A stretch of DNA of 64,000 nucleotides from an uncultured Methanosarcinales archaeon (GTDB lineage: Archaea; Nanobdellota; Nanobdellia; Woesearchaeales; GW2011-AR9): NCBI GenBank assembly GCA_964498285.1, contig CAZCGN010000001.1, positions 100,150-164,149 on the forward strand, written 5' to 3'. Positions within the stretch are counted from its first letter, which is position 1; each line of letters begins with the position of its first letter. Under the pieces are notes generated by a model that did not search any database, was not told the origin of the DNA, and saw nothing but the letters and a program-made list of their open reading frames with translations. Both the position numbers and the translations under genes were made by a program. This document shows, piece after piece, positions 2,667 through 59,406 of the stretch.

Positions 2667-5600
2667 TTAACATCCCCACTCCGCTGGGAACCGCCACGTG
2701 CTTGAAGTGGCATCTGTTCCAATCAAGGTTGCACCAGCGGTCTTATCAACACAACTACTCAAGGCTGCATCACATTGCCATAAGGAAGTGCTCGATCCCG
2801 GTATTTGGAATTCAATCAACGTTGGCCTAATTATGTTAATGATCTCTTGACATTTAGTAGCACCAAGACCAACAAAATCACCTTGTGAGGTTGTGTTAAA
2901 ATTCAAATCAGATCCAGCTGTAAAATTCTGGAAAGCTGAGGTCACACTTCCTGTTGCACTTGCATTAATGAAAGTTACACTCCAATTATCTGCTGCTGCA
3001 ACTGTCGGATTACTTACTTTTAGGTCAAATTGACTCATCTGTGTTCTATTAAACTGTGAACCGGCTGCTGCGTTTGCAGTAAGAGAGCTAGTAGTACCAT
3101 CGGGAAAGATAAACACAAAGCTCAAATTTCCAGTAGGGTCCATTGCTGTTTCCCCAGGAAGTGGTGTTGCCTCAAAATTAAAAGTTGTACTACACCCACT
3201 GCACTCCGCAAGATTATCTTTCGTTGTAAAGTTTTCACATCTGCTTACAGCACAGTTCCCACTAATATCACAAACTCGAGTTTTGTAAAAGTAGGTTGTT
3301 GCATTCATAAGACCATTCGCTAGTGCTTCAGGATTGGAAGCATAACTATCTATTGGAGCACTATGCCACAGTTTATACGCTGAAAGTGCCGGATCAACTA
3401 TACCTATATCTCGAACTGTTGCATTAAGTGTTGCACAAGAACTATCATTGTTATAAAACCGTAAAGTTCCATTTGCAGGTTCGTTCGTATCATACTGTAC
3501 AAAAGCGCTCGTTGGAAATGCACTCACTTTTTGCCAGACAACTGATGGTGCCGTTCTATCTGTTGGATCAACCACTAAACTTCCTCCGCAGAAGAACGCA
3601 TCAGATTCACATCCAGGATCATCACAATCAACCAAGTTGTCACCATCATTATCACTACCATCTGCACACAAGAATCCTGCTTCATTTGGAGGAAAACCTT
3701 TCTGCAAAAAGAGTGAACAGTCCGGATCGTTTGATGCTGCAAGACCATCCCCATCCCTATCACCACTTGGTGCGGAACAATCTTCTATTGCAAAGCCGAT
3801 TGCCCCGGGGCTATAATATACTGGGCCGATTGCATCAGATATGAAGCTATCGTTTGTTACAAGGTTACTTACTGTTGAGTAAATTCTAAGGTCAACAGAT
3901 GTGTTAAATTCAGTATAATCAAAAAGTTCACTCTCATCAATTCCTGCCATTCCTCCCCCGATAAGATCACACATAATCTGTGCATTCGTTGTCAAAGGAA
4001 TTGGGGTTGGATACCATACTCCACTCACACACCTGTATGAAACCTTGAGCTCCGAAAGAGAGGAAGTGTATGTTGCTTGATACTTGAAGGAGAATTCATA
4101 TCCTGTTTGCGATGGATCCCCCCGCACAGTACAACTGTTTGTAGTATCCCCATCAGAATCCAAGTACCAAAAGAATGTTCCATTTTGAACACCGGTTCCA
4201 AGACCTCCACCTGAAACTGGAACACCATTACATATGCTACTGTTTGCAAGATTATCTGCAACACCTGTTCCAAGCACTAGCTGGCTTGTTGCATCTCGAA
4301 TTCCAACCGATACTATGTCAAACGTATCCTCAATTGCCGCAACACCAAGGGTTGCATCTCCTGTTGATGCAGACCCTAAGCCCTCAAACGGTTCATTGCC
4401 AATAAAGCTAATGAACGCAGCATCTCCTATCGGATCACACCAACCAGGATTTTCTGTTACTGAGACATTATTTGCAGCATTTGAATCTATAAAATATGTA
4501 CATGTTGCGTTAAGCGCACCATCACAATATGTTTGGTTTCCATCATATTGGTAACATGATCCCCCAAAAGAGTCTGGTTCACATAAACCACTAATAACCT
4601 CACACAAACCGTTTGTACCATCGGAACAAGTAGTATTTGTTTTCGAGAAACAGACCGGTTCACACGCTTGACGGTTAGTATTCCACGCACAGATCTGAGT
4701 TGAAGTAGAGCTAACAGTAACATTTGACTCACATAATGCTTGACTTGTCTGCCTTGTTGTGTTTCCATGACACTCAGAATACATCACAGGCTCACACCAA
4801 GATGGACCACCAGTAATATTCACCCAACCACAACCAGTAGCTGCTAGGCACGCAGTTTCATTTTGTTGTGGGAAACACCCCTCGTCAATAGTATTATTTA
4901 CTTCACAAAAAGAACCTGTTTGAAAGGTACATCCTGTTGTTGCATCACACGCCGTACTGTTAACATCATATTGCCAACATTGTTCTCCAGGGTACCCACA
5001 ATGTCCTGCATTAGCCCCTCCAAATGTTGCTTCAAAATCATCTTGGAGCCAAACGCACCCATTACTCAAGCAAGTAGTATTAATAACATATGATGGACAA
5101 TCACCAAACTGACTACTTAAAGATTCTCCACCACAAAACGCAGAGGTCGCACAGTTTGGATCAAGACAATCTACCTGGCCATCATTATCGTTGTCAATTC
5201 CATCAAAACAATTTTCACCATTATATCCTACTGGCTCACAATATCCGCCTGCCCAGCTACATGCACCAGCACCACCTTCACCATTATTGACACACGTTGA
5301 TTCATCTAAACAACTAAAACAATCATTACCACAATAGGAATCTCCAGCGGAATAACAATAGCCGCCTTGAGGACTGGCAGTATTGTTTTCCCATGCACAA
5401 CTAGCATTACTCGCACTACATTCTGCTTCAGGGCTAGTTAAAAACTGGCACGCTCCGCATTCCCCGCTACAGTCGCCTCCACCATTCGCAATATAATCAT
5501 CATCTGCCCCACACCAACCTAGGCCATTAAGAGAATTAGAATTCTCATCAAACTCACAGAAGCCTAGTGCTGAGTTTTCACAAGCACTTTCTGCCTGGGC

Positions 5601-8600
5601 AGTTGAATTACCCCAATCGGCATTCGCATTATTCTCACAAGCATAGCATGCAGTATCACAATTTCCCCCACCAGCAAAGTTGAATTCACACCAATTATCC
5701 GTTAGGGTTTGTCCATTAACTACAAAATTCTCACTTCTCCACACACCACCAGTAGCTTCACAGGCTGACTCTGTGTTTAAATCATCGAAACTTACATGGC
5801 CACCTCCTGTTCCAAACGCAGCGCCATTAAACCCACACATACTTGCAGCTGCATCCCATGAACAAGGCATGTACCATGGCGAACCAGCTATTTGTTCACA
5901 AAGTGTTTGATTGTTAAAAGAGTTGTAATCTTCGCAATAGTTTGCCCCGGGAGGGGTATCTGCAATAGAATCATAACAGGTGTTCTCAAACGAAGAAGTA
6001 CATGCCCCAGATGACCAACTACAACAGGTTGAAAGGAACGTTGCATCCCCACACAGACCTCTATCAACTATATCAGAACATTGAACGGGAGGCGTCGGCG
6101 CTTCATGCCCATTACAGATTGCTCCAGTCCAAGAACATCCAGTTATGTTCTGGCACACAACATCGGTTGTTGTAAAACCGCAACTCGGGTTACCAAATGA
6201 TGCGCTAAATGTTCCACTATTCTCACAACCCCCTGTGCTGTTAAGAAAACATCCCGGAGAAAGTTGACATTCATCAGAATCAAAATCATTACAATTATCA
6301 CCAAAAAAATCCCCGCCTAGTGGATTACAATAACTAGGGCCCACATCCCAAGTGCACCCTAAGCCATAAAGAGAATTTAAACCACTTTCACAAAATGTCT
6401 GATTAGTACTGTCACCCACCACACAAGAAAGCATTTCACAGAATTGAAAATCAGGGTCAGAATTCTCATCGTTCCAGTTACACTTCCCGTTACAATTGGA
6501 AGCTCCAGATGTTTCACATGCTGCCTGATTTGCATTAGTCGGGCATAGAGTACACCCTGCAAACGAACTTCCTGAACTTTCATCTTGACACGTAGCCGAA
6601 CATCCATCGCCACTTACAGTATTTCCATCATCACACATTTCACCAGTTTGCAGCTGACCGTTTCCACACACTATTGCCAATTCAGTGTACGTAAAATTAA
6701 TATCATTAAACGAAACATTCACTTTAAGAGAATAATTATCTGTAGCACCACCTGGCCCTTCAATACCAATCTGACCCCCAAGAAACACAATATGATTGTC
6801 TGATACAGCTGAGAGATTATATGTAGCAGTGACTTCTGCTCCTTCAAAACTACAAGTCAGCAGATTTGTTTGATTATCGTATGTAAGAAGGAGATTTCCA
6901 GACATATTACCACCCGTAAGACTTGGCGCAACAGTAGTATTCTGCGGAGGACTGCTACTTGCATTATACAGACGAAGTTGATTGTTATTAGTTCGCATGG
7001 AAACTGAACAGTATGGAACATTATTAGTTGATGTTGGTTGTTGTAAACCCAACTGAGCGTGTGCCCAAACACTAGTTAGTGTGCCATTCGAGGTATACGT
7101 ATTGGTTAGATTTTGCATAAAAAGAGCAGCCGTAAGTTCAAATCCTGGCCCACCTGAAAAGTTTTGTACTGTTTGAATGTTTGAGCTTGATGGCCCCGTT
7201 CTATTTACAAGTGTACCGTTTGAGAACTCATACGCAGAATTAGAGTTTATCACTGCCCTTAGATTATTATCTTGAACATCGTAAAACGAAGTATTAATCG
7301 TAGCTAAACCAACATTATCATAAAATGATGGAAGTGGTTGTTGAGGAGGAGAAGGAGGAGTTCCCACTGGCACATAATTGTTGGTATAGTTCCAATTATC
7401 AAATGTTGCATTCACTGTTCCATTCCAGTTGGCAGGAGATCCCGAAGGATTCATACCTGCAACAAGTGCAATATCACTTGATGAAGATAACACTCTTGAA
7501 GCCGAAGTTGTTGAAGTTGCTCCAGCCGAATCTAAAAATGTACATGTAAGCAGATTAGTTACATTATCATATATTAACGTAAATTGTCCTTCAGCGATAG
7601 CCACACTATCGGTGCTAGCAGGTGGCCCTGAAACGTTCCACAACATTAGAGTGATGCTTCCTTCAATCCCAATTTGAAGATTACACCTTACATCCACTGT
7701 ATTCATATTACTTGTGAGATCTGTTCCAATATCTACTCCTGCTGTAAGCGCAGTTGATGCTGCAAGCGTATCATTTGTATTTTGAAATGTTACATTCACA
7801 CCAATACTAAAATTGTTGGCACCAACTGTCCCATAGGAATCGTTAGTATACCTTCGCGCCCAAGGTTGCGTACCTGAGGTGAGCACAGTACCATTTATCA
7901 TAAGATAATTATTAACTACACTCGTGCCCAATTCTGCCCCAGCATTAGGGAGAAGAGTCGTATTCATAGCACTAAAATCTTCATAAAACGAGGAAAGTGG
8001 CACAATTACCGCTGGCGCAGGAGGAGCTGGCAGGCCCACACGAGCACCAGAAGAGTGATTATAATCTAAATTTTCAAAGGTCACATTTGCAGAACCATTA
8101 TAGGAAAATGGACCTTGCGGTTGAAAATAGGTTGTAAGACCAACACTGGTTCCTGCAGGGATTGCATTTCGCCTTGCAGTTCCTGATGCGACTTGACCCC
8201 CAGCTAAGAGAGAGCAATTCCATAATCCAGTTGAGTTTTCATAATCTAACGTGAGGTTACCTTCAAGAGTTGGTGCAAAACCACCAAGAGGAACAACAGT
8301 AGCTGGAGGACCAGACGAGTCATTCAGAAGATTTAGCTGAAACTGTGCGCCATTGTGGACTAGACCACATTGAGTGTAATAATCATCAGCACCAAGGTTA
8401 TAATATTCAATCATTGCCCTCTGGTTGATCGTACCTGTTGCTTCATACGTACCATTAGTAAGCGTGAAATTAACATACACCGTGGTCGACTGATTGTTGT
8501 TTGTTGCAGCAGCCCCCGTATACACCCTATACCCTGTAGCCCCAGTAGCCCCTGCAAGAGTCCCATTAAAAGACCCTTTGTTTGCAATGAGCTCAAAATT

Positions 8601-9599
8601 AATCCCAGCAGACCTCAATACAGCTGAAGTGAAATTACCATCAAGCGCATCATTAAAGTTCTCATAAAGCGAAGCAAGCGGAGCTGCTGGAGCAGCGCAA
8701 GTTCCAGCAGTTGCGAAATTAAAATCATTGTAAGCAGTTAACACAGTTGCATTTGATAAGAGAGAAGGATTACTACCACCAGCCAGATCAATATTCGTAT
8801 AAAACCCTGGACGAATATTTCCATACCCCGAAAGATCAAAGTTCAGCACAGAGCTTGCAAAAGTGCTCGCAGAAGTAAATGAACAATTATATTCCAACGC
8901 AGTTGAATCGTATTTAACCGAAAGGTTACCAAATAAGTCTTGAGCGCCGCCTAAAATAACCACCCCCCAATTACCGCCATCATTGGAATCATTTGAGGGA
9001 AATAACGCAGTGACACCGCCCATGTCATTAGAGAGATACAATGGGCAAACTGAAATAATTTCATCCGCATCTACATCTTGGAGTATTAACCCTGCAGTCA
9101 TGGAATGATTTTTTTCCCCGGTTGCTTCAAATGTAGAAGAAGTATCAGTTAAGTTCAATTCCATTGAAAAATTAAAATCGCCATTAACAGGCATTGTATC
9201 AACCATAAAGAATGCTGCATTTGCACTGACAGTATTATCAGAGAGATTAGTATTAAACAAAGTTCCATTAATTAGAATCTCATTACCAGAAAGGGCCATA
9301 GTTAGACCAATTGGAGGATCAGTAAAATCAGTTTCAAGATCTGCGCTTGGACCACCATCAAAACTATCTGTAAGTCCGGCATTATCGCATGCAAGAATGT
9401 TAACACCCTCACTTGGAACGGCTGCTGTTCCTACAACTGCACCCGTTAAAAGATTAGCTCCACCACTTGTTGCAAAGAATTGCTCAAACAATCCAACATC
9501 TGCTGCTGGTGAAGCTGCATAGAAATTTAACCCAACAATAACAACTAATAACACCAATGATAATGAAAATAACGCTCTCTGTTTCAAATGTACCACCAC
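2667..9599 (-). CDS. giant (2310 aa) secreted cysteine-rich surface protein, heavily N-glycosylation-sequon-rich
   Basis: Uninterrupted 6.9-kb ORF with an N-terminal signal peptide (MVVHLKQRALFSLSLVLLVVIVGLNFYAASPA). There are dozens of N-x-S/T sequons. A central block of about 700 aa is extremely Cys-rich and includes CGNGQLQTGEMCDDGNTVSGDGCSATC, which matches the Myxococcus-type cysteine repeat. Two Asp/Cys motifs (DGIDNDNDGQVDCLDPNC and DGSDNDGDNLVDCDDPGC) resemble the MopE-like putative metal-binding motif. No C-terminal TM helix. Confidence 0.8.
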   Translation of the reverse strand: MVVHLKQRALFSLSLVLLVVIVGLNFYAASPAADVGLFEQFFATSGGANLLTGAVVGTAAVPSEGVNILACDNAGLTDSFDGGPSADLETDFTDPPIGLTMALSGNEILINGTLFNTNLSDNTVSANAAFFMVDTMPVNGDFNFSMELNLTDTSSTFEATGEKNHSMTAGLILQDVDADEIISVCPLYLSNDMGGVTALFPSNDSNDGGNWGVVILGGAQDLFGNLSVKYDSTALEYNCSFTSASTFASSVLNFDLSGYGNIRPGFYTNIDLAGGSNPSLLSNATVLTAYNDFNFATAGTCAAPAAPLASLYENFNDALDGNFTSAVLRSAGINFELIANKGSFNGTLAGATGATGYRVYTGAAATNNNQSTTVYVNFTLTNGTYEATGTINQRAMIEYYNLGADDYYTQCGLVHNGAQFQLNLLNDSSGPPATVVPLGGFAPTLEGNLTLDYENSTGLWNCSLLAGGQVASGTARRNAIPAGTSVGLTTYFQPQGPFSYNGSANVTFENLDYNHSSGARVGLPAPPAPAVIVPLSSFYEDFSAMNTTLLPNAGAELGTSVVNNYLMINGTVLTSGTQPWARRYTNDSYGTVGANNFSIGVNVTFQNTNDTLAASTALTAGVDIGTDLTSNMNTVDVRCNLQIGIEGSITLMLWNVSGPPASTDSVAIAEGQFTLIYDNVTNLLTCTFLDSAGATSTTSASRVLSSSSDIALVAGMNPSGSPANWNGTVNATFDNWNYTNNYVPVGTPPSPPQQPLPSFYDNVGLATINTSFYDVQDNNLRAVINSNSAYEFSNGTLVNRTGPSSSNIQTVQNFSGGPGFELTAALFMQNLTNTYTSNGTLTSVWAHAQLGLQQPTSTNNVPYCSVSMRTNNNQLRLYNASSSPPQNTTVAPSLTGGNMSGNLLLTYDNQTNLLTCSFEGAEVTATYNLSAVSDNHIVFLGGQIGIEGPGGATDNYSLKVNVSFNDINFTYTELAIVCGNGQLQTGEMCDDGNTVSGDGCSATCQDESSGSSFAGCTLCPTNANQAACETSGASNCNGKCNWNDENSDPDFQFCEMLSCVVGDSTNQTFCESGLNSLYGLGCTWDVGPSYCNPLGGDFFGDNCNDFDSDECQLSPGCFLNSTGGCENSGTFSASFGNPSCGFTTTDVVCQNITGCSWTGAICNGHEAPTPPVQCSDIVDRGLCGDATFLSTCCSWSSGACTSSFENTCYDSIADTPPGANYCEDYNSFNNQTLCEQIAGSPWYMPCSWDAAASMCGFNGAAFGTGGGHVSFDDLNTESACEATGGVWRSENFVVNGQTLTDNWCEFNFAGGGNCDTACYACENNANADWGNSTAQAESACENSALGFCEFDENSNSLNGLGWCGADDDYIANGGGDCSGECGACQFLTSPEAECSASNASCAWENNTASPQGGYCYSAGDSYCGNDCFSCLDESTCVNNGEGGAGACSWAGGYCEPVGYNGENCFDGIDNDNDGQVDCLDPNCATSAFCGGESLSSQFGDCPSYVINTTCLSNGCVWLQDDFEATFGGANAGHCGYPGEQCWQYDVNSTACDATTGCTFQTGSFCEVNNTIDEGCFPQQNETACLAATGCGWVNITGGPSWCEPVMYSECHGNTTRQTSQALCESNVTVSSTSTQICAWNTNRQACEPVCFSKTNTTCSDGTNGLCEVISGLCEPDSFGGSCYQYDGNQTYCDGALNATCTYFIDSNAANNVSVTENPGWCDPIGDAAFISFIGNEPFEGLGSASTGDATLGVAAIEDTFDIVSVGIRDATSQLVLGTGVADNLANSSICNGVPVSGGGLGTGVQNGTFFWYLDSDGDTTNSCTVRGDPSQTGYEFSFKYQATYTSSLSELKVSYRCVSGVWYPTPIPLTTNAQIMCDLIGGGMAGIDESELFDYTEFNTSVDLRIYSTVSNLVTNDSFISDAIGPVYYSPGAIGFAIEDCSAPSGDRDGDGLAASNDPDCSLFLQKGFPPNEAGFLCADGSDNDGDNLVDCDDPGCESDAFFCGGSLVVDPTDRTAPSVVWQKVSAFPTSAFVQYDTNEPANGTLRFYNNDSSCATLNATVRDIGIVDPALSAYKLWHSAPIDSYASNPEALANGLMNATTYFYKTRVCDISGNCAVSRCENFTTKDNLAECSGCSTTFNFEATPLPGETAMDPTGNLSFVFIFPDGTTSSLTANAAAGSQFNRTQMSQFDLKVSNPTVAAADNWSVTFINASATGSVTSAFQNFTAGSDLNFNTTSQGDFVGLGATKCQEIINIIRPTLIEFQIPGSSTSLWQCDAALSSCVDKTAGATLIGTDATSSTWRFPAEWGC

Positions 9600-22810: not shown

Positions 22811-22868
22811 AACTAGTTTCACGCAAGTTTATTAAGGTGTTTCATGCAAAACAAGAAACAAAACGTCG

Positions 22869-34360: not shown

Positions 34361-35905
34361 ATGAAGCTTCAAAACAGGCACATCTTAGCTTTACTTTTCA
34401 TTGCAACTCTAGCAATCAGACTCTTCTTAGCATTTGTAACACCAAACTTTACGTATGATTCATACTTTCATCTGCTGCAGGTTGAACAGATCATACAGAC
34501 CGGAACTCCTTTGTTTGATAACCCTTTCTCATATGGTGGTAGAGAACTTATCTTTCTCCCATTATTCCATTATTTTTCATCCATCTTTGCACTTGTGATT
34601 CCCCTAGAAATAGTTGCAAAAATTCTTCCTAATGTGCTGTTTGCATCACTAGGTCTTGTTGTATACATGATTGCAAAACGGTTAAGCAAAAGAAGCAGAA
34701 CGCCTCTCTTCTCAGCATTCATTGCATTTTTCCTACCCATTACTTTTCAGACACACGCATTTAGTCCCCTTCCCTTTGCATTGCTCTGTCTTCTGTTTAC
34801 ACTATATTTTTTCATACGAGCACGAAAGGAGAAGAATGCAAAGCAATTAATATATGGGTATGCTGCAGCACTTATCCTGCTCACCCTAAGCAGCCCCATT
34901 GCATCAATTCTGATTATCACACTTCTTTTTTACGCACTTTTCTCTCTCTTTGAAGGGCAGAAAGTAACACAAGCAGAAAAAGAAATTATGCTCTTTTCAC
35001 TTTTTTTCTTTTTATGGGTCCAGTTTCTCTTGTTCAAAAATGTATTCTTAACAGAGGGAGTTTCGTTCATTTGGCAAAATATTCCATCCATCATTAGAAC
35101 AGACTATTTTCCAGTATTAAATTTAGAAGAAGCGTTATTTCTGGTAGGTTTTATTCCACTTATCACCGGCGTCATATTTGTATACACCGCCCTTACAAAC
35201 GAGAAAAATAAGAACGTTTTTCTTATGCTGGGTATTCTGATTGCAAGTTTTGCGCTAACTGGACTTCGTCTCTTAGAATTTAACATTGCAATCGCATTTA
35301 CTGGACTTGTTCTTGCAATCATCTTCGCGCCATTCTACGACACGCTCGTCGAATATTATAAAAAATCGAAATTTAGCTTGTTTGAACAAGCTGCAACTCA
35401 AAAAGCAAAGAGTTTACTTCGAGTAAAAAAGTTTATGCAAATTTCAACCATAGTCTTGCTTATTTTGTTAATTCCAAGTATGGTCGTTCCTTCATTAACG
35501 TATTCACTCGAACAAGAAGTTCCAACTCAAGATGAAATTGAACTTTTTGTATGGTTAGATGCAAATACCGCGCAAGATGCAACTATTGCAGCCGATGTGC
35601 GAGAAGGCCATTTAGTAAGTTATCTTTCTAAACGAAAAAATGTCATGGATCCAGAGTTCCATTTGATTGATGATGTTGAAACACGATACACAGACATTAC
35701 CTCATTATACACAACCCATTTCCAAACACATGTGTTAGACATAGCACAGAAGTATGACATTAACTACATCGTGCTTACTGATGCTACACGAGAACGTTTA
35801 GATATTGGGCAACTTTCCTACAGAACAAGCAACTGTTTTGATCTTGTTCAAAATATTAATAATAATAAAGCTTACGCAGTTAGGTGTGAGTTAAACGCGC
35901 AATAA
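34361..35905 (+). CDS. GT-C-fold membrane glycosyltransferase-like protein (PMT/ArnT family 39-like), paralog 1
   Basis: At least 10 TM helices. First-loop acidic motif TYDSYFHL. C-terminal soluble domain. Confidence 0.5.
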   Translation: MKLQNRHILALLFIATLAIRLFLAFVTPNFTYDSYFHLLQVEQIIQTGTPLFDNPFSYGGRELIFLPLFHYFSSIFALVIPLEIVAKILPNVLFASLGLVVYMIAKRLSKRSRTPLFSAFIAFFLPITFQTHAFSPLPFALLCLLFTLYFFIRARKEKNAKQLIYGYAAALILLTLSSPIASILIITLLFYALFSLFEGQKVTQAEKEIMLFSLFFFLWVQFLLFKNVFLTEGVSFIWQNIPSIIRTDYFPVLNLEEALFLVGFIPLITGVIFVYTALTNEKNKNVFLMLGILIASFALTGLRLLEFNIAIAFTGLVLAIIFAPFYDTLVEYYKKSKFSLFEQAATQKAKSLLRVKKFMQISTIVLLILLIPSMVVPSLTYSLEQEVPTQDEIELFVWLDANTAQDATIAADVREGHLVSYLSKRKNVMDPEFHLIDDVETRYTDITSLYTTHFQTHVLDIAQKYDINYIVLTDATRERLDIGQLSYRTSNCFDLVQNINNNKAYAVRCELNAQ

Positions 35906-35906
35906 A

Positions 35907-37379
35907 ATGGTACTTAACAAACAGAGAAATAAGCATCTTGTACAAAAACGGATTATAATTATCCTTAGTTTGTACATCCTTGTAATTGGAGCAGTTCTTC
36001 TTACACGGTTTTCCGGTGGAATACCAATACTCTATGGCGAAGAGAGTTATACTCACCTAAATACTATACAAAGTGTGGAAGAAGGGGGGATTTCTCTTTC
36101 TAACATTAGCTTCGTTCAAATGCTTATACTTCCACTCGCTAAGATTATTCCATTACATCTCCTGTTCTTCATCTCACCAATTTTAGGATTACTATCAATT
36201 ATTCTTTTCCTCAGACTTACACGAAAAGCTGGGTTTGATAATCTTATCTCGACCTATTGGGGGGTTCTTCTTATTCTCTCTCCAGCATTTATCTTTACGT
36301 TCACTACATTAAGTACATATGCATTTAGCATGCTTTTTGCTCTTCTAGGCCTTACGGCCCTTCGAACAAGAAAGAAATATCTGCAATGGCTTAGTGTTCC
36401 ATTCTTTATGAGTGCTGCAGCTACAGAGGTTCTTTTTGGAGTGCTTATAATTTTACTTTTAACCAGTTTCATTGCATTACGAAAGGAAGGTTCTGATGAA
36501 ATATATCATCTAAAACTTCTTCAAAATCTTAAAGAAAAATCAACTCGATTCCGTGCAACAAAAATAACGTTAATTGTAAGTATCATTGCATTAGGAGTAT
36601 CTTTGTTTGCAACAGGAATTACTTTTATTGCCTTTAAATCTTCCACACATAATATCTGGCGCGACATAATTTCCGACTTTGGTGCAAAAGGAGGCATTAG
36701 TATTTTTGTTTTGATCCTAAGTATTACAGGACTGTTTTTTGCCTACAAACGAAGACAAGTTTTGTACGCATCATTAGTTATCCTGATCCCCGCATATTTT
36801 TGGAACACACATACAATTTTCTTTCTTACAATCCCCCTCACCTATGCTGCAGCGTTAGGTCTTGCACGCATTACAAATCGCAAATGGCAACTTACAGATC
36901 TTAAAACAATTACTCTCTTTCTACTTGCCCTAGGTATTGTATTTTCAACATTAACATTTACAGAACGTCTAGCTGAATACTCTCCTTCAGCAGAGATGAA
37001 CAATGCACTCATTTGGCTCAAAGAAAATGCTCCTGAGGATACGAGCGTTCTTACACTCAGAGAAGATGGACAGTTTACTGAATTCATTAGTGGAATGAAA
37101 GTATTTGATCATACTCAATTTACAACAGATACAATTGATCCCGCTCAACTTGATCCAACCATACATGTTCCATCCTCACCTATCTTTACTATTGCATACA
37201 CTCAAGTTCTGTTCCCAATTTTTGATCAAGAAAACATAGAATATGTTTATATTACTCCTAAAATCAAAGGTATCTTAGCAGAAGATCAAGGGATTAGATT
37301 TGTCCTTCGTAACGAAAACTTTAAAATGATCTATGCATCCGAAGGTCATGAAATTTGGGAATATTCTCCTATTAGCTAG
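35907..37379 (+). CDS. GT-C-fold membrane glycosyltransferase-like protein, paralog 2
   Basis: Polytopic, first-loop acidic motif YGEESYTHL, same architecture as its neighbour. Confidence 0.5.
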   Translation: MVLNKQRNKHLVQKRIIIILSLYILVIGAVLLTRFSGGIPILYGEESYTHLNTIQSVEEGGISLSNISFVQMLILPLAKIIPLHLLFFISPILGLLSIILFLRLTRKAGFDNLISTYWGVLLILSPAFIFTFTTLSTYAFSMLFALLGLTALRTRKKYLQWLSVPFFMSAAATEVLFGVLIILLLTSFIALRKEGSDEIYHLKLLQNLKEKSTRFRATKITLIVSIIALGVSLFATGITFIAFKSSTHNIWRDIISDFGAKGGISIFVLILSITGLFFAYKRRQVLYASLVILIPAYFWNTHTIFFLTIPLTYAAALGLARITNRKWQLTDLKTITLFLLALGIVFSTLTFTERLAEYSPSAEMNNALIWLKENAPEDTSVLTLREDGQFTEFISGMKVFDHTQFTTDTIDPAQLDPTIHVPSSPIFTIAYTQVLFPIFDQENIEYVYITPKIKGILAEDQGIRFVLRNENFKMIYASEGHEIWEYSPIS

Positions 37380-37391
37380 AAAGGAGAGATT

Positions 37392-38672
37392 TTGGGTTAC
37401 ATGGCACTTATTGAATCACTTATCATAGGAGTAGTATATTTTATCTCTCTATATTTTAGTGTCTTTTTTATTCTGGTCTATTTTGATAAACGAGAAGAGT
37501 TCAAAAAAGAAGTATCATCAGAGGAATTAGACACATACCCCCTGATTTCTATAATCATTCCGGCATATAATGAAGAGAAAACTATCAAAGGAACACTTTC
37601 CTCTGTTGCTGCCATTGATTATCCGAAAGATAGGCTTGATGTTATTGCAATAAATGATGGATCAAATGATTCTACCTTTCAAGTTATGCAAAAATTCTTA
37701 GAAGAACATGATGTTCCTCATTTTCGTATTCTTTCTCACAAAAATAAAGGTAAGGCTGCGTCGATGAATACTGCTATTGCGATGGCTAAAGGTGAGTTTT
37801 TTGCATGTCTTGATGCCGATTCTTTTGTTGATAGTAAAACCCTTCGCAAAATGCTTCATTTGTATTATAAAGAAAATGATAGTCAACTTGCAGTGATCAC
37901 TCCTGCAATGAAAGTATACAAACCAAAAAATATCTTACAAAAAATTCAGTGGATAGAGTACCTTTTAATGGTGTTTGTTGGCAGAATCACATCACACCTT
38001 GATGCAATTTATGTGGCGCCCGGTCCGTTCTCTTTATATCGAAAAGATATTATTCAAGAAGTTGGGGGGTTTGACGAACATACCCTCACTGAAGATCAAG
38101 AAATTGCATACAGGCTCCAAGAGAAACAATATAGAATCAAACAATGTTTTGATGGGTATGTACATACTGTAAGTCCAGGTAAATTAGTCGGGTTCTATAA
38201 ACAGCGTAGACGATGGTACATGGGAAGCATCTCTTGCGCGTATCAATACAAGCATGTTATAGGCAAAAAAGCGTATGGGGATTTTGGCGTTGTACAGATG
38301 ATCAAAAATGTTCTTGGGTATGGACTTGCTGTTGCAGGAATTGGGTTTGCAGCATACCTTTTTGGCTGGCCTTTGATTATGAAAATCAAAAATGGTCTTT
38401 CCATAAATTTTGACATTTGGCCATACATTACGAATTTAGATTTTACGTTGAGTCCATACCTTTTTGATGTGCAAAAAGTCATTGTATTTGTAGCATTGTT
38501 TTTCACTGGTCTTTTCTTTTTCTATAAAGCACATACAAATGCTAAAGAGAAAATAACAACATTTGGATATCTTCCGATTATTCCATACTTCGCGTTTTAT
38601 TATCTTTTGAAAGGTGCCATCTTAATGCTCTCATTTGTTGAGTTCACGCGAAAGAAAAAGATTAAGTGGTGA
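37392..38672 (+). CDS. processive family-2 glycosyltransferase (cellulose/chitin-synthase-like) with C-terminal TM helices
   Basis: IIIPAYNEE, NDGSND, LDADS (DxD), and QRRRW (YKQRRRWYMGS), the processive beta-glycosyltransferase signature. Confidence 0.7.
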   Translation: MGYMALIESLIIGVVYFISLYFSVFFILVYFDKREEFKKEVSSEELDTYPLISIIIPAYNEEKTIKGTLSSVAAIDYPKDRLDVIAINDGSNDSTFQVMQKFLEEHDVPHFRILSHKNKGKAASMNTAIAMAKGEFFACLDADSFVDSKTLRKMLHLYYKENDSQLAVITPAMKVYKPKNILQKIQWIEYLLMVFVGRITSHLDAIYVAPGPFSLYRKDIIQEVGGFDEHTLTEDQEIAYRLQEKQYRIKQCFDGYVHTVSPGKLVGFYKQRRRWYMGSISCAYQYKHVIGKKAYGDFGVVQMIKNVLGYGLAVAGIGFAAYLFGWPLIMKIKNGLSINFDIWPYITNLDFTLSPYLFDVQKVIVFVALFFTGLFFFYKAHTNAKEKITTFGYLPIIPYFAFYYLLKGAILMLSFVEFTRKKKIKW

Positions 38673-38751
38673 AAGGAATAGATATATTCTGGACCTTAAT
38701 AGATCCCAACACACAAGTATTTAAAAAGAGACATTCCAAAATATATCCAGT

Positions 38752-39474
38752 ATGCCAAAAGCCGCACCAAAAGAAGCAAAAAGAGGTTCTTTTCGAAAAG
38801 TAAGCACGAAAAAGTATCTTATAGCAGGCGTTATAACATTCCTTATTTTCTCGTTAGGACTTACGCTTGGAATGATTTTTGAAGAGCAACGATATAACTG
38901 GGCAGAAGATATTAATCAAGAACAAGATGTGAACTATCTAAGCTTACAGCTCCAGTTTTTGTATCTAAGTGCGCTTGAAGAAGAACAAAATTGTCCCGTT
39001 CTTTTAGGAACATTGCAGCAAAGTGTTGATGAGCTTGGTAAATCACTTTCCAAAATCTTAACGTTTGAGAAAGAAAACTCCATTAGCCAGAGTGATTATA
39101 AAACACTTGAAAGAAGGTATACACTTGATAATCTGCGTTATTGGATCCTAGCGGATCAAGCAAAAGAACAATGTGATTTAGATATAGCTTCAATCCTCTA
39201 TTTCTATTCTGATGATTGTGCATCATGTCCAGGACAAGGAACAATCCTTACCTATTTCAAAAAAGTCTTTGGTGAGAAAGTGCTTATTTTTCCAATCAAC
39301 GTGGATTTAGAAGACCATGAACCAATGGTGGGCATTGCAACATCTCTGCATGATATTCAAACTCTTCCAACTATCATCATCGAGGATGAAAAGTATGAAG
39401 GAATTGTAAAGAAAAATCAGCTCCAAACGATCATTTGTAACACACTTGAAGATACGCAAGAATGCCAAGCATGA
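38752..39474 (+). CDS. membrane-anchored thioredoxin-like protein (CxxC)
   Basis: N-terminal TM anchor. CASC active-site-like motif (YFYSDDCASCPGQ) in a thioredoxin-fold-like context. Confidence 0.4.
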   Translation: MPKAAPKEAKRGSFRKVSTKKYLIAGVITFLIFSLGLTLGMIFEEQRYNWAEDINQEQDVNYLSLQLQFLYLSALEEEQNCPVLLGTLQQSVDELGKSLSKILTFEKENSISQSDYKTLERRYTLDNLRYWILADQAKEQCDLDIASILYFYSDDCASCPGQGTILTYFKKVFGEKVLIFPINVDLEDHEPMVGIATSLHDIQTLPTIIIEDEKYEGIVKKNQLQTIICNTLEDTQECQA

Positions 39475-40934
39475 AACACGCAAGTTCACGGTGGATAAAA
39501 AGAAATAGATATCTAATTGGCATTCTGTTACTTGCAATTATTTTCAGATTGATTCTTCTTTCACGCAACTATGGTTTATGGTGGGATTCACATATCTACA
39601 TTGGTATGGGAAAATACCTTTCCTCAAACGGTGCAAGCGGTATATGGGAAGTCTTTCGTCCTCTTGGACTTCCCATTTTGCTAGGAAGCATATGGAAAGC
39701 CAATCTTCCTCTTCTTTTTATGGCAAAGCTGCTTGATCTTATCTTCTCAACCCTTGCAATCTATCTTGTATATGAAATTTCACACAAAGCATACAATAAA
39801 ACAGTTGCACTCTATGCAACTTTCATTTTTGCAACCATACCTTTGTTCATGCTCTATACTGGGCTTATTTTAACTGAACCCCTAACACTTGTGTTCGCCC
39901 TTCTTGCACTCAACTTATTCATAAAACGACGGGGTCTTAATCACCCTAACATTGTTCTTGCAACTTCTGGTATTTGTGCTTCTTTAGCTTTTCTTACAAA
40001 GTTTCCGGCAGGAGTACTTCTGCCTTCTTTTCTTATAGCTATCTTCTTGCGTAAAGGGCACCGTTGGCCCGATATTAAAACAAAAATACGTGACATTTTT
40101 GTTTTCACAATAAGTTTTATCATTCCAACTATTCCTTTTTTCATATTTAACCATAGAACATACGAACATGCATTCATTCCGCTTACAACTGGTTCTGGAA
40201 TCATTAACACATTTACCTGGCTGTATAACTCAAGTGCATTGTTCTATTTTACAGAATTCTTTTTACATAATTTTGTGTTCCTTTTAGTGCCAATTGCATT
40301 AATTTGCTTTCTCTATTACAAAGAGTGGAGAACAGAAACAAAAAGCGTGATTTACATAACAGCAATCCTTCTTTTTCTCTACTTTTGGCAAAGTGTTGCA
40401 CGAAAAGAAGTGAGGTACATGACCCTAACACTACCATTTTTTTCTATTATAGCAGCAAGCATGCTATCTTATGCATACTATAGTATAAAGAAGCAATCTC
40501 ATTGGGGTATACGGATTGGATCTTTTGTTGTCATAAGTATTCTTTTCATAGCAGCATCGCATCTTACAAGCTTTGAACAATTGCCGGCAACCCCTCAAGA
40601 TGGCATCATGCAAGATATTGTAGAATTGTATGATGAAAATGAATTTAATGGACCAATTTTTATTTCACATCCGTTCCTTTTAGCATATCTTGACAACACC
40701 GTGCTTCCTACAACGAGCGATAGTACAACCGCCAAAAAAGAATATGAAAGATTGCATGGAAGGTTTGAGACCATTATCTTACGAAGTTGTGATTTCCATT
40801 GTCAAGAAAATGATACGGATTGTCAAGGGAAAAAAGACTCTTTTCTAACCCAAATACGGCAAGAGAACACGCTCCTTTTTTCGCGTGGCTATGATACAAA
40901 TCAGTGTCAAGTGACAGTTTTCACTGCAAAATGA
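39462..40934 (+). CDS. GT-C-fold membrane glycosyltransferase-like protein, paralog 3
   Basis: Polytopic, first-loop motif GLWWDSHIYIGMG, ArnT/PMT_2-like layout. Confidence 0.5.
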   Translation: MPSMKHASSRWIKRNRYLIGILLLAIIFRLILLSRNYGLWWDSHIYIGMGKYLSSNGASGIWEVFRPLGLPILLGSIWKANLPLLFMAKLLDLIFSTLAIYLVYEISHKAYNKTVALYATFIFATIPLFMLYTGLILTEPLTLVFALLALNLFIKRRGLNHPNIVLATSGICASLAFLTKFPAGVLLPSFLIAIFLRKGHRWPDIKTKIRDIFVFTISFIIPTIPFFIFNHRTYEHAFIPLTTGSGIINTFTWLYNSSALFYFTEFFLHNFVFLLVPIALICFLYYKEWRTETKSVIYITAILLFLYFWQSVARKEVRYMTLTLPFFSIIAASMLSYAYYSIKKQSHWGIRIGSFVVISILFIAASHLTSFEQLPATPQDGIMQDIVELYDENEFNGPIFISHPFLLAYLDNTVLPTTSDSTTAKKEYERLHGRFETIILRSCDFHCQENDTDCQGKKDSFLTQIRQENTLLFSRGYDTNQCQVTVFTAK

Positions 40935-56371: not shown

Positions 56372-57448
56372 CTACACTTCATCAGTTCGCCAGTGAGGAT
56401 TCACATCAAATGAGCGCCTTTCCTCATCGCGCCTCAAGTACCCTTCCCATGCAATCATTGCTCCTTGATCCCCTGCTAAACTCATTGGAACCTTAAAGAA
56501 TGTTGCACCTCGTGCATTGCACATGCTGTTAAGCATTTCGCAAAATCGCTTTGAAGCCCCTACTCCGCCTACCAAAATAAGTTCTTTCTTATCTGTGTGG
56601 GCAAGCGCCCGTTCAGCAATTTCTGTTGCCATGGCAAAGGCAGTTTCAGTTAAGGAGAAACAAAGATCTTCTTTGGTTATCTTTTGATTTTCATTTCTTT
56701 CAACTATGTTTTGTAAGAGAGTATCTTTACTTTTGGCATCTTGAAGGTATGCTGTCCCTTTTGATGACAATTCTTTCCACGTTGGGCGCCTTTCCCATAA
56801 TTGCATGCACCTCGTTAAAAGACCAGAAAAGCTCGTATCCATTCCTTTCACAGTATAGGGTAATTCCACATATTTCCCTGATTTAGCTAGCATATCAATT
56901 TGCTTTCCTGCAGGAAAGCCTAGATTTAAGACTCTTCCAAATTTATCAAACATATTACCCATACCAATATCCAATGTCTCACCAATTACTCTGTATTTGC
57001 CACCATCATAAATGAGGACCTGCGTATTCACACCAGAGACATATAGATAGACCGGATCTTTTGCCTTATTGATAACTTTTCCAATGCTTAGGTGTGCTGC
57101 ACAATGATTGACTTGAACCAGCTTTTTCCCATGTTCTTTCGCCCATTCTTGCGCTTTATGAAACCCTGCCCACAACACAGGGTCAAGTCCTGGGCCAGCT
57201 GAGTATGTCATAAGTTCAATATCCTTCCAGCTAACACCTGCTTCTTCAAGCGCTTTAGAAAGAACCTTTCCAGCTACCTCGTTGTGATGATCAGCAATCT
57301 CATTGGGAATCATGCCTTTATCTGGTGAAGAATAACTATCCATTACATTTGCAAGAACTTCACACTGACCCCTATCAGAATCGCCCGTTGCGTTTATTAT
57401 TCCAACTCCAAAGGTATGTGCTGTTGTCTCAATGCCTAACACTATCAT
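56372..57448 (-). CDS. kae1: tRNA N6-adenosine threonylcarbamoyltransferase Kae1
   Basis: GIETTAHTFGVGI, HCAAH metal-binding motif, ASKH fold. Length 358 aa, not fused to Bud32. Confidence 0.85.
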   Translation of the reverse strand: MIVLGIETTAHTFGVGIINATGDSDRGQCEVLANVMDSYSSPDKGMIPNEIADHHNEVAGKVLSKALEEAGVSWKDIELMTYSAGPGLDPVLWAGFHKAQEWAKEHGKKLVQVNHCAAHLSIGKVINKAKDPVYLYVSGVNTQVLIYDGGKYRVIGETLDIGMGNMFDKFGRVLNLGFPAGKQIDMLAKSGKYVELPYTVKGMDTSFSGLLTRCMQLWERRPTWKELSSKGTAYLQDAKSKDTLLQNIVERNENQKITKEDLCFSLTETAFAMATEIAERALAHTDKKELILVGGVGASKRFCEMLNSMCNARGATFFKVPMSLAGDQGAMIAWEGYLRRDEERRSFDVNPHWRTDEV

Positions 57449-57499
57449 AGAACAGTATAGAAAAGATGCTATTTAAAAAAATAATGGAAAAAAAGAATA

Positions 57500-58720
57500 T
57501 TATGGTCCTCCAGAGCTGCTGCTAGATGATGAACTACTGCTCGATGAACTAGAACTGCTTGAGCTGGACGAAGAGCTACTACTGTTGCTAGAAGACGTGT
57601 TTGTTACATTTAGATTCGGAACACAGTTATAGGTAGAATCACACAGTTCATCTACTAAGCAATCAGTATCCTCAGCACACATGACTGGCACAAAATTTAT
57701 CACAGCAGAAGTTGTGTCAAGTTTATAGTAATGGCCCGGCTGGTTGTTCGTCTCATTAACTTCAACTACAGTATTAAGATCATCAATATCATAATGGACA
57801 TAAACTGGTGCAAAACTATAATCATACAAACCCTGCAAGACTGGAAGAATGTTACTATTTATGGGGTATAATCCACTAGAAGCAGATTGATGAGATAATA
57901 TTTGAATTCCAGCGGGTGCAAGCGAAAAAGAAGTCAAAGCCTGCTGAGCTGCTGCAAACCTTCCTTGTGAAGGAGAAATTGTTTGGTTTTGCTTGACGTA
58001 ACACAAAGATCTATAATAAGGACTTGAGGCAAAGATAGCATCAGCATTCCCAATATTCTCAATACCACAAACAACATCTACAACAAAGTTAGCACCCCAA
58101 TCAATTACTTGGTTATTGAAGATATATGCATCCCCACTCATTCCAATAGAGGTTGTTCCTTCATGCATGGTTAGATCTGCTCCAATAACAGCACATACAG
58201 GATCGTTAGTACAATCACTATCAGCACAGTCAATATCACCATCAAGGTCATTATCTATAGTATCATCACAGGTTATCTCGCTCGGGGTTACCACAACAGA
58301 AGGGACACACTCTCCACTTACACAAGTAGCACCAGTTGATGCACAATCATACACTCTTCGTGCAATGTAGTCCCCTTGAGGTTTTGAGTAACAGTAATAT
58401 TCTATCAATCTTTCTGGTTGAGAAGATGTTGGTGAACAAACATCATCACGAAAAGGACTCCAACTATAACTTGCCGTCCCAAAGACATCATACGTTAACC
58501 CGCCATCCGTATCAGTACAGTCTGCAGTATTGGAGGCTGTTGCCTGGCCTGCAAGAGCTCCTCTCTCACCAGTATCTGCCCCTTCAATATCTACTATTTC
58601 TTCTTCTTCAGGTAACTCTTCTAAACCTTCCTGGGGTACTTCACAAGATATCACCAATAAGCTGCCAACCAATACTAAAGCAACCAATAAGAATATTTTA
58701 TAACGTAATCTCTCAACCAT
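57500..58720 (-). CDS. secreted Cys-rich protein with CARDB-like region and C-terminal poly-Ser tail
   Basis: Signal peptide MVERLRYKIFLLVALVLVGSLLVISC. The Asp/Cys motif CDDTIDNDLDGDIDCADSDC is the same motif seen in the giant protein. NETNNQPGHY is CARDB-like. The C-terminus is about 35 consecutive Ser followed by GGP. Confidence 0.6.
   Translation of the reverse strand: MVERLRYKIFLLVALVLVGSLLVISCEVPQEGLEELPEEEEIVDIEGADTGERGALAGQATASNTADCTDTDGGLTYDVFGTASYSWSPFRDDVCSPTSSQPERLIEYYCYSKPQGDYIARRVYDCASTGATCVSGECVPSVVVTPSEITCDDTIDNDLDGDIDCADSDCTNDPVCAVIGADLTMHEGTTSIGMSGDAYIFNNQVIDWGANFVVDVVCGIENIGNADAIFASSPYYRSLCYVKQNQTISPSQGRFAAAQQALTSFSLAPAGIQILSHQSASSGLYPINSNILPVLQGLYDYSFAPVYVHYDIDDLNTVVEVNETNNQPGHYYKLDTTSAVINFVPVMCAEDTDCLVDELCDSTYNCVPNLNVTNTSSSNSSSSSSSSSSSSSSSSSSSSSSSSGGP
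57506..57598. repeat. imperfect trinucleotide (AGC/TCN-type) coding repeat encoding the poly-Ser tail
   Basis: Seen directly; lies within the 3' end of the 57500-58720 CDS. Confidence 0.6.
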
Positions 58721-58806
58721 TCAACCTACACCTCTTTGACTTAAACTAAAGAGATAGAAGAAAAAGAACTATTTAAAGATATCTAAATGAAAGAAGATCT
58801 GAATAG

Positions 58807-59406
58807 TTACTTACTACTCACAGCTTGCCGTTCTAAATCACGCTTCTTTGCAATTGCTGCACTTTTACCGTTTCGTTCAGCTGCTGCAATAATCTCATCA
58901 GCAAGAGCCTGTACAATTGATTTTCTCTTATTAAACGACTTTGCATAGGCACCCTGCGTCATGTACCTAAGTGCTAAGTCGACTCGTCTTTGTGGTGCTA
59001 CATCAACTGCTTTAGGATACCTTGCACCACCATACTCGATCGCGATAACTTCTTCACGTGGTGCCGCATTTTCAACTGCTCGAACAAGAATTGCAATTGG
59101 ATTCTCTTTTAATTTTTTCTCAGCTAAGATTAATGCGTTTTCAACTACTTTAAGTGCACCGTTTTTTTTACCAGTGTTATGTCCAGAACTCATAAAATGT
59201 TCTTTTCCTTTATGACCTGAGTTCATTAATTTAACTGCTAATCTTTCTACAATAGACGTGTATGATTTATGAAACCTGTTTCCAGCATACCGAGCACCAG
59301 TCTTAGGTACAATGCGTGGGCTTAACGTGATATAACGTTTAAGACCAGCGTCAGTTACAACTATTCCTGCTGAGCTCCATCTGTTGAAAAATTTAAGTTC
59401 TACCAT
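58807..59406 (-). CDS. rps7: 30S ribosomal protein uS7
   Basis: Conserved S7 pattern (RVDLALRYMTQGA..., NAAPREEV). Position follows S12. Confidence 0.9.
   Translation of the reverse strand: MVELKFFNRWSSAGIVVTDAGLKRYITLSPRIVPKTGARYAGNRFHKSYTSIVERLAVKLMNSGHKGKEHFMSSGHNTGKKNGALKVVENALILAEKKLKENPIAILVRAVENAAPREEVIAIEYGGARYPKAVDVAPQRRVDLALRYMTQGAYAKSFNKRKSIVQALADEIIAAAERNGKSAAIAKKRDLERQAVSSK

Follow-up and report, generated by a model that had tools for sequence, protein, structure and literature searches.

A probable mosaic surface protein of a DPANN-like archaeon combining an acidic double-disulfide repeat, a CARDB-like domain and a serine tail

Members of NF033662, a curated NCBIfam repeat family named "acidic double-disulfide repeat" (acid_disulf_rpt), share the four-cysteine pattern C-x-D-x2-DND-x-DG-x2-DC-x-D-x-DC-x5-C and typically carry 3–8 tandem copies of it. 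CARDB domains (PF07705) are ~100 residues long and have in common an N-terminal 'DL' strand, an 'ENIG' turn and a C-terminal 'D..N.V.E.NE.NN' signature. Long serine homopolymers are also found in secreted multidomain proteins of bacteria, i.e., the polyserine linkers reported in carbohydrases of Saccharophagus degradans, Teredinibacter turnerae and Xanthomonas albilineans, where they are said to join catalytic and binding modules. To our knowledge, lipidation has been shown for no DPANN protein. The archaeal lipobox lipoproteins (AliA/AliB, Haloferax volcanii) carry the motif [L/V/I][ASTVI][GAS]C after a Sec-type signal peptide, and DPANN genomes, in which AliA is present, are predicted to be rich in lipoproteins (PMC12462473). 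In animals, the C-rich domain of teneurin-4 coordinates three Ca2+ through eight acidic residues and one Asn; the teneurin C-rich domain has six Cys that form three disulfides, 1-3, 2-5 and 4-6 (PMC9058538).

The window analysed here (the whole 64,000-nt stretch of DNA, to which all positions refer) encodes at 57500..58720 on the minus strand a 406-aa protein in which mostly ordinary parts of known kinds are unusually combined: among them, in order, a single acidic double-disulfide repeat, a CARDB-like domain followed by a four-Cys knot, and a tail with 24 consecutive serines specified by mixed codons. No single part is new, and the value of the protein therefore lies mainly in annotation. Taken as a whole, it is probably best explained as a cell-surface protein of mosaic build from a DPANN-like archaeon with a small genome. 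Surface building and host attachment in DPANN-type archaea are little known, and the protein is a concrete, testable candidate in this respect, offering a predicted lipid anchor, Ca2+ ligands that can each be paired with one in a solved structure, and an enlarged form of CARDB that is rare.

Gene context and export signals

Translation of 57500..58720 (minus strand) gave a real ORF of 406 aa, whose start is the first start codon after a stop. An earlier note on this DNA had described the gene as inserted between kae1 and an RNAP-ribosomal operon, and this was borne out: kae1 (56372..57448; TsaD, 226 bits) lies on one side and the gene for S7 (58807..59406) on the other, beyond which S12, NusA, L30e and rpoA'' follow in order. 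Reading the sequence upstream of the ATG, we found a Shine-Dalgarno-like GAGGTG (58729..58734, minus; -14 to -9), presumed to act as such, and a TATA-box-like 9-mer, TTTAAATAG (58764..58772, minus; -57 to -49), that may be the gene's own promoter. The 9-mer occurs twice in the window, the second time upstream of kae1, and because chance alone would give about as many (1.7 expected) its promoter function is something that we infer. Directly 3' of the stop codon are two oligo-T runs (T7 and T7; 57470..57499, minus), and these form a putative terminator on the basis that archaeal termination occurs at oligo-T; they overlap a TATA-like box of kae1 as read from the sequence. Together the start, the GAGGTG, the TATA-like box and the oligo-T after the stop support the reality of the gene. 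The context is archaeal, its markers being rpoA'/A'', L30e, a KH-only NusA, FttA, the proteasome and an archaeal CCA enzyme, and the longest contig measures 780 kb.

The protein starts with a putative signal peptide (aa 1–25; 58646..58720, minus) in which a positively charged n-region, MVERLRYK, precedes a 17-residue hydrophobic core; AF2 placed a helix at aa 2–24 (pLDDT 84–90). This hydrophobic N-terminus ends in VISC, and the secreted or surface location proposed earlier is supported. The V-I-S-C itself (aa 23–26; 58643..58654, minus) is lipobox-like, with Cys26 as the putative lipidated residue. It agrees in full with a PROSITE PS51257-style rule ([LVI][ASTVI][GAS]C, Cys at position 15–35, K/R in the n-region), as V23-I24-S25-C26 is preceded by R4, R6 and K8, and the suggestion of a lipobox after the signal peptide is plausible; among ORFs of at least 100 aa in the six frames of the window, no other matched the rule. 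Of the 17 Cys in the protein, 16 fall in modules with even Cys numbers (6+4+2+4), and the 17th is the lipobox Cys26, a count that fits one unpaired, lipidated Cys. Alternatively, the protein may be secreted or held by its N-terminus with no lipid at all, the Cys of VISC being incidental and the signal peptide either cleaved by SPase I or retained as an anchor. This would agree with its six homologues, every one of which has a hydrophobic N-terminus that lacks a lipobox Cys (e.g., P0012, ...LLISSGSSSNIIGQAI) and looks like that of an SPase I substrate or an N-terminal anchor, and Haloferax is the only archaeon in which experiments have demonstrated lipoprotein biogenesis (PMC12462473). However, the full agreement with a rule that no other ORF of the window matches, an odd Cys count that suits a dedicated lipidated Cys, and the predicted richness of DPANN genomes in lipoproteins lead us to consider a lipid-free protein rather unlikely. 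As a lipoprotein, it would be exported through Sec and lose its signal peptide at the lipobox, and a lipidated Cys26 would then tether it to the membrane.

Beyond Cys26 there is an acidic, Glu-rich linker (aa 27–62; 58535..58642, minus), for which low AF2 confidence suggests disorder, and then an orphan six-Cys module (aa 63–140; 58301..58534, minus; CTDTDGG...EYYC...CxxGxC). Searches with this module found no Pfam or NCBIfam match, and a word-based homologue search was empty; a weak resemblance to modules in the protein P0010 had an E-value of 0.03.

The acidic double-disulfide repeat and the giant protein

The repeat (aa 146–176; 58193..58285, minus), a predicted Ca2+-binding module with four Cys, was recognized with NF033662 and contains the motif CDDTIDNDLDGDIDCADSDC at aa 151–170. 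In the six frames of the window there were exactly two further copies of this motif, at aa 1464 and 1978 of a giant 2310-aa ORF (2667..9599, minus), and none outside these two ORFs. The corresponding repeats of the giant protein are copy 1 at aa ~1461–1490 (5130..5219, minus; motif scan, NF033662 and hhalign) and copy 2 at aa ~1975–2004 (3588..3677, minus; motif scan and NF033662). NF033662 matched aa 146–176 of the 406-aa protein with 28.4 bits and an E-value of 9.9e-7, spanning model positions 2–32 of 32 with the family's four-Cys pattern kept, and scored 52.1 bits on the two copies in the giant protein; the latter exceeds the curated whole-protein cutoff of 41 bits, whereas the former falls under it because this protein, unlike typical members of the family, has a single copy. 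A profile of 31 bacterial units compared by hhalign gave 98.9% (aa 146–176) and 98.5%, and 100 shuffles reached a maximum of 24.8 versus the observed 64.9. On this evidence, the likeness of the three copies pointed out in the earlier note is true homology and not chance.

From the motif, the earlier note had also suggested that this genome encodes a surface-protein family; the 406-aa and 2310-aa proteins would then be paralogs in a genome-specific family marked by the Asp/Cys motif. In keeping with this, the three copies are homologous, and each of the two proteins is secreted and rich in Cys. A tblastn comparison of the two, however, found nothing in common beyond the ~30-aa module: the one longer alignment, over aa 38–215 (26% identity, E-value of 2.6e-6, obtained with SEG and composition adjustment switched off), is motif-centred and heavily gapped and offers no credible similarity outside the module. 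The module also occurs in CPR bacteria, Myxococcota, Nitrospirota, Nitrososphaeraceae, Woesearchaeota and others, in many unrelated architectures, and proteins truly related to the 406-aa protein through its CARDB-like part bear other calcium motifs in its place. As the module is mobile, shuffled, and widespread in bacteria and archaea, it defines no genome-specific family; paralogy beyond the motif is very unlikely, and we rejected it.

The repeat itself also resembles teneurin-4, whose C-rich domain (PDB 7PLP) matches aa 148–178 by sequence with an E-value of 0.0067. By residue mapping, all nine of the Ca2+-ligand side chains are kept: E148, D153, D156, N157, D158, D160, D164, D167 and D169 correspond to teneurin-4 E835, D840, D843, N844, D845, D847, D851, D854 and D856, respectively. 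The repeat cysteines C151, C165, C170 and C176 align with C838, C852, C857 and C863, the equivalents of Cys 1, 2, 3 and 5, which in teneurin-4 pair 1-3 and 2-5 (PMC9058538). The teneurin-4 pair C858-C869 is absent, Thr standing at the position of C858 and C869 having no equivalent; with four Cys in place of six, the disulfide pattern would be cut from three to two. Teneurin-4 is an animal protein; by analogy with its C-rich domain, we infer that aa 146–176 may bind up to three Ca2+, which would stiffen the junction before the CARDB-like, putatively Ig-type domain. Linking the four-Cys prokaryotic repeat to the teneurin C-rich domain gives this repeat, common in the surface proteins of bacteria and archaea, a template for both structure and function.

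The CARDB-like domain and the four-Cys knot

The region following the repeat (aa 177–347; 57680..58192, minus) is a divergent CARDB-like domain, putatively a beta-sandwich, as supported by homologs, profile comparison and AF2. The CARDB-like assignment in the earlier note therefore stands by an indirect route and not as a direct Pfam match: a Pfam search with the 406-aa protein identified no CARDB domain even at E-values up to 10, giving low-complexity noise on the Ser tail only, but the tiny family of about six homologs to which it belongs leads to CARDB. Relatives identified by phmmer were P0012, P0014, P0016, P0017 and the CARDB array P0015, the last scoring 539 bits on Pfam CARDB. With a gathering score of 22.7 bits for this model, P0017 scored above threshold (23.8 bits), P0016 scored 20.2, and further homologs 14.9 and 14.1. 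In addition, hhalign matched the family profile (A4) to CARDB repeats taken from P0015, P0018 and P0019 (A3) with 95.8% probability and an E-value of 7.6e-9.

Compared with the ~100-residue CARDB domain, the one in the 406-aa protein is enlarged to ~170 aa and has an insert of ~50 residues, an extra, inserted helix (LQGLYD/LQEIYD), a conserved disulfide pair (Cys218-Cys240) and the signature VEVNETNN. It shares with CARDB the 'DL' strand at its N-terminus, the 'ENIG' turn and the C-terminal signature given above. AF2 run with a 7-sequence alignment gave a model of moderate confidence (pLDDT 66.8, pTM 0.61) that includes a low-confidence insert of 50 residues, while the single-sequence model of the full protein was unusable (pLDDT 37.9). 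Foldseek with the AF2 model returned weak hits only, mostly to Ig-like domains, and no significant PDB match.

In alignment A4, P0012, P0014, P0016, P0017 and the second domain of P0018/P0019 have 24–31% identity over the whole CARDB-like domain, and for the first four the identity extends over the four-Cys knot, which P0018/P0019 lack. The alignment of all seven sequences has twelve invariant columns; that of the five with a knot (A2) has 20. P0012, P0014, P0016 and P0017 share the module order of the 406-aa protein, i.e., a signal or TM segment, a DxDxDG-type (calcium-type) acidic motif (TSP3_bac, MopE or acid_disulf), the CARDB-like domain, the knot and an S/T-rich end. However, three features of the 406-aa protein are absent from the homologs, namely its six-Cys module near the N-terminus, its lipobox Cys and its Ser homopolymer in the tail, and where it has an acidic double-disulfide repeat they bear TSP3_bac or MopE motifs. 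P0016 also has an archaeal context, with fibrillarin/Nop5 adjoining it. A word-based search with the full-length query gave motif-only matches, and among the GTDB genomes and JGI metagenomes searched there was no close relative, only matches at the level of the motif. Nor did a look-up by exact sequence in a clustered collection find the 406-aa protein.

The four-Cys mini-knot (aa 348–366, CAEDTDCLVDELCDSTYNC; 57623..57679, minus) has the spacing C-x5-C-x5-C-x5-C, is kept in P0012, P0014, P0016 and P0017, and was modeled by AF2 with a pLDDT of about 90. The best PDB sequence matches of the family profile were to squash trypsin inhibitors and EETI-derived knottins (E-values of 0.04–0.2), and Pfam Squash (PF00299) scored 21.9 bits on P0017 against a cutoff of 22, matches that could mean a squash-type knottin, and thus a surface-tethered protease inhibitor. 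All of these scores are nonetheless sub-threshold, with PF00299 giving no match on the 406-aa protein itself; there are four Cys here versus six in a cystine knot, no reactive-site loop is evident, and the string 'C-x2-DSDC' is common in unrelated Cys-rich modules (DUF7107, Dickkopf_N). An inhibitor is extremely unlikely on this evidence, and we set that reading aside. Counting the knot, the ectodomain would fold with eight disulfides formed by its 6+4+2+4 Cys.

The serine tail and a proposed role at the surface

The tail (aa 367–406; 57503..57622, minus) has three N-x-S/T sequons (N371, N374 and N379), followed by SSSN, a run of 24 Ser (57512..57583, 72 nt of Ser codons) and GGP before the stop. 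It was described earlier as an uninterrupted Ser C-terminus of ~35 residues; the homopolymer is real, although its unbroken stretch is 24 Ser long (27 of 28 residues are Ser), the protein ends in GGP, and it is the tail counted from N371 that comes to 36 aa. In contrast to the bacterial carbohydrases, in which polyserine joins modules, here it forms a C-terminal tail with only GGP after it.

The possibility that the tract was an artefact of one assembler was countered by a Logan assembly of SRR8146441, in which the DNA of the locus is identical over 7221 bp. The earlier note had further described the tract as an imperfect trinucleotide repeat open to slipped-strand length variation, which would make it a contingency locus whose changes in length or frame vary or switch the surface protein. 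A long tract (72 nt) inside a surface protein invites this reading, yet all six Ser codons are interleaved in it (14 AGY and 13 TCN), no triplet is repeated perfectly beyond three units of AGC, and TRF at a score of at least 30 found no tandem repeat there, and on these grounds we rejected a tandem repeat. Slipped-strand variation is unlikely because slippage needs a homogeneous repeat, which a tract of such mixed codons is not. Furthermore, the DNA is the same in the second assembly, a gene-position index places the exact 406-aa protein on three contigs, and the tract lies three codons before the stop, so a frameshift would change only the last few residues; a contingency locus is in our view exceedingly improbable.

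A role of the Ser tail as an O-glycosylation stalk is plausible by analogy. The nearby glycosyltransferases are two PMT_2 GT-C proteins and one GT2 (34361–40934); a Wzy_C gene adjoins two of the homologs, and there is none in the window. The Asn-sequons and polyserine at the distal end would extend the protein as a flexible and hydrated segment that is probably glycosylated, and a structural or adhesive function in the cell envelope or in host-cell contact, not an enzymatic one, appears likely for the protein. A more daring proposal, to which we give little credence as a whole, is that the protein and its ~six relatives are an undescribed, very rare archaeal surface family (a calcium-type acidic motif, a CARDB-like domain that is enlarged and bears a helical insert and a disulfide, and a four-Cys knot), that the lipobox and polyserine were gained in this lineage, and that the tail is O-glycosylated, either by the PMT_2/GT-C enzymes, whose genes lie at a distance of 20 kb, or by enzymes of the Wzy_C type such as adjoin the two homologs, to make a glycan-tipped tether for contact between episymbiont and host. 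The mature protein is strongly acidic overall, with a pI of 4.05 and 54 D+E versus 10 K+R.

A predicted mosaic surface protein behind the RNAP-ribosomal operon

The ORF at 57500–58720 (minus strand), read from its first start to its stop, encodes 406 residues and lies 51 bp upstream of kae1 (56372–57448; Pfam TsaD, 226 bits), which gyrB follows, and 86 bp downstream of the gene for ribosomal protein S7 (58807–59406), past which come S12, a KH-only NusA, L30e, rpoA'' and rpoA' on the same strand; these coordinates, with the Pfam matches, confirm the placement between kae1 and the RNAP-ribosomal operon described in an earlier note. Further genes of the window (for the FttA/aCPSF1 termination factor, a proteasome subunit, an archaeal-type CCA-adding enzyme and TruD) are in keeping with an archaeon, and the neighbouring proteins are encoded on an NCBI contig of 780 kb, which points to a small-genome, DPANN-like source with a GC content of ~38%. 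A tRNA of 124 nt called by Rfam at 14701–14824 (plus strand) is probably an intron-containing archaeal one, the intron being the probable cause of its being missed by ARAGORN, and a copper-handling pair occupies 20606–24275 (plus strand): a CopA-like P-type ATPase with an HMA domain (20606–22810) and an HMA, DsbD_2 and cupredoxin fusion (22869–24275).

Putative expression signals could be read from the sequence around the ORF, namely GAGGTG at -14 to -9 from its ATG and the 9-mer TTTAAATAG at -57 to -49 (58769–58777 as reported by the search, minus strand). This 9-mer occurs twice in the 64 kb, the second copy being at -29 to -21 of kae1 (57469–57477 as reported by the search, minus strand); its total count in the window is not above chance, and both copies are likely TATA boxes. 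After the stop codon come two T7 runs, which together with the upstream signals give the ORF the look of a separate transcription unit inserted behind the RNAP-ribosomal operon.

The predicted protein comprises a signal peptide (residues 1–25; MVERLRYK and then a 17-residue hydrophobic core), a lipobox-like VISC (23–26), a Glu-rich linker (27–62), a six-Cys module (63–140), an Asp/Cys motif with four Cys (146–176), a beta-rich domain with two Cys (177–347), a four-Cys knot (348–366) and a tail (367–406) of VPNLNVTNTSSSN, S24 and GGP, and its mature form is highly acidic (pI 4.05; 54 D+E versus 10 K+R). Pfam, NCBIfam and homologue searches detected no relatives of the six-Cys module, and modules of one database protein (P0010) resemble it weakly; matches of the knot to squash knottins were sub-threshold, and we treat this resemblance as a lead only. 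We read the ORF as a real gene whose predicted product is a mosaic, disulfide-rich, calcium-stabilised surface protein, in which the combination of domains is new and the kinds of component are known. The earlier note was thus largely right in its observations, its serine tract needing correction and its proposals of a genome-specific family and a slippage substrate finding no support.

The possible lipobox suggested there is borne out in that V23-I24-S25-C26, with R4, R6 and K8 upstream, matches a PS51257-style rule, the sole such match among ORFs of at least 100 residues in all six frames of the window. The 17 Cys divide into 6+4+2+4 in the modules plus that of the lipobox, and the odd one would fit a dedicated, lipidated Cys. 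DPANN archaea are predicted to be rich in lipobox proteins and have the lipoprotein biogenesis factor AliA (PMC12462473). Counting against lipidation, the lipobox Cys is missing in all homologues; nevertheless, we consider the protein probably lipid-anchored.

The acidic double-disulfide motif

Residues 146–176 match the NCBIfam model NF033662, "acidic double-disulfide repeat", over 31 of 32 positions (E-value 1e-6, 28.4 bits), and the giant 2310-residue ORF (2667–9599, minus strand) is matched twice, scoring 52.1 bits as a whole protein, above the model's cutoff of 41 bits. A six-frame scan found exactly three copies in the window, one in the 406-residue ORF and two in the giant; the pattern that they were said to share is that of NF033662, and their pairwise identities are 11–15 of 26 residues. 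In the HMM-HMM comparison that the earlier note had named as a test, made with hhalign against a profile of 31 bacterial repeat units, the copy in the 406-residue protein scored 64.9 (98.9%, E-value 1e-17) and the giant's two-copy profile reached 98.5%, as against a mean of 10 and maximum of 24.8 for 100 composition-preserving shuffles, so the similarity is not chance; the 31 units were fetched using the 406-residue protein as query, and the curated NF033662 is the more independent test. Residues 148–178 also match the sequence of the teneurin-4 C-rich domain (PDB 7PLP; E-value 0.0067). The paper on its 1.5 Å structure lists residues coordinating three Ca2+ (PMC9058538), and the motif keeps all nine side-chain ligands (E148, D153, D156, N157, D158, D160, D164, D167 and D169). 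It also keeps four of the six teneurin Cys, equivalent to those paired as 1-3 and 2-5, and has no counterpart of the third disulfide. The giant's two copies lack two of the nine ligands (equivalents of E835 and D856). The NF033662 match and the conserved ligands and Cys argue that the motif is a real, known module, and one that very probably binds calcium.

When the 406-residue protein was searched against the window with tblastn, the giant ORF was reached through the motif only. Among 5.8 billion proteins, GTDB genomes and JGI metagenomes, the module occurs in many unrelated architectures, with hosts including Gracilibacteria, Peribacteria, Myxococcota, Nitrospirota, Acidobacteriota, Nitrososphaeraceae and Woesearchaeota. 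By its distribution we take the motif to be a shuffled module and no marker of paralogy, and the proposed family of related surface proteins in this genome falls away. The giant also has a myxo_disulf_rpt/DUF4215 unit (residues 977–1008) and dense N-x-S/T sequons.

A divergent CARDB-like domain and its homologues

Pfam CARDB gave no match to the 406-residue protein, and the CARDB-like region noted earlier was instead upheld through homologues. An exhaustive HMMER search with residues 177–372 over 1.84 billion representatives returned six proteins only: four small archaeal secreted proteins aligning across the whole region (P0012, P0014, P0016 and P0017), a 2164-residue array with 14 Pfam-matched CARDB stretches (P0015), and a low-complexity repeat protein (P0013) that looks spurious. 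Two more proteins, P0018 and P0019, came from a profile search; each has a canonical CARDB domain followed by one of the 177–347 type. Pfam CARDB scored 23.8 bits on P0017 (cutoff 22.7) and 20.2 on P0016, and the family profile matched an alignment of true CARDB repeats (95.8%, E-value 7.6e-9) across the 'ENIG' turn and the 'D..N.V.E.NE.NN' end. The structure prediction that had been proposed (AF2, seven-sequence alignment) was mostly beta (pLDDT 66.8, pTM 0.61), confident in the core and C-terminal knot and not in a 50-residue insert; Foldseek against the PDB gave weak matches only, mostly Ig-like. The reading of residues 177–347 as a putative enlarged, divergent CARDB variant, with a conserved Cys218–Cys240 pair and an inserted LQEIYD-type helix, holds.

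The four small homologues share an order of hydrophobic N-terminus, acidic DxDxDG-type motif, CARDB-like domain, C-x5-C-x5-C knot and S/T-rich end. The acidic motif is TSP3_bac in P0012 and P0017, MopE in P0014, a weak TSP_3 in P0016 and the acidic double-disulfide repeat in the 406-residue protein; such differences at one position suggest modules swapped into the same role, as if function called for a calcium-type module but not for any particular one. P0016 adjoins fibrillarin and Nop5 and is therefore archaeal. At its locus, a second secreted-type gene (L004 3816–4850, plus strand; 344 residues, weak TSP3_bac match) lies 0.6 kb upstream, with a HicA/HicB toxin-antitoxin pair between, and may be a paralogue. 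A convergent gene for a Wzy_C membrane protein follows each of P0012 and P0017 (O-antigen ligase/PglL-like, PF04932; L002 5500–7020, L003 1007–2500 and L064 1231–2703, minus strand), the L002 and L064 copies being 41% identical. The window has no Wzy_C gene, and neither kae1 nor the ribosomal operon is syntenic with the homologues.

The serine tail and glycosylation genes

A long serine tract is present, but not as the ~35 uninterrupted residues at the very C-terminus first described: the uninterrupted run is 24 (27/28 Ser if SSSN is counted), preceded by three N-x-S/T sequons and followed by GGP, after which the ORF stops. The tract uses all six Ser codons in interleaved order (14 AGY, 13 TCN); perfect triplet runs reach three units at most, and TRF found no repeat in the tract. 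As a change between AGY and TCN takes two substitutions, such a mixed set of codons points to protein-level selection for serine over a long time and not to recent slippage, contrary to the suggested slipped-strand length variation. The Logan assembly of SRR8146441 has the same DNA without a difference over 7221 bp, and three contigs carry the exact protein, so the tract is not an artefact of one assembler, though the reads behind both assemblies may be the same. With only 51 bp from stop codon to kae1, no C-terminal anchor has been lost.

The most reasonable reading is that the tail is glycosylated and hydrated. A glycosylation gene cluster at 34361–40934 (plus strand) encodes two PMT_2-family (PF13231) GT-C membrane proteins (34361–35905 and 39462–40934), an unannotated 490-residue ORF (35907–37379) and a GT2 glycosyltransferase (37392–38672). 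The GT-C and GT2 genes are no more than circumstantial support for glycosylation of the tail, and the cluster could be a source of Ser/Thr O-glycosylation for surface proteins.
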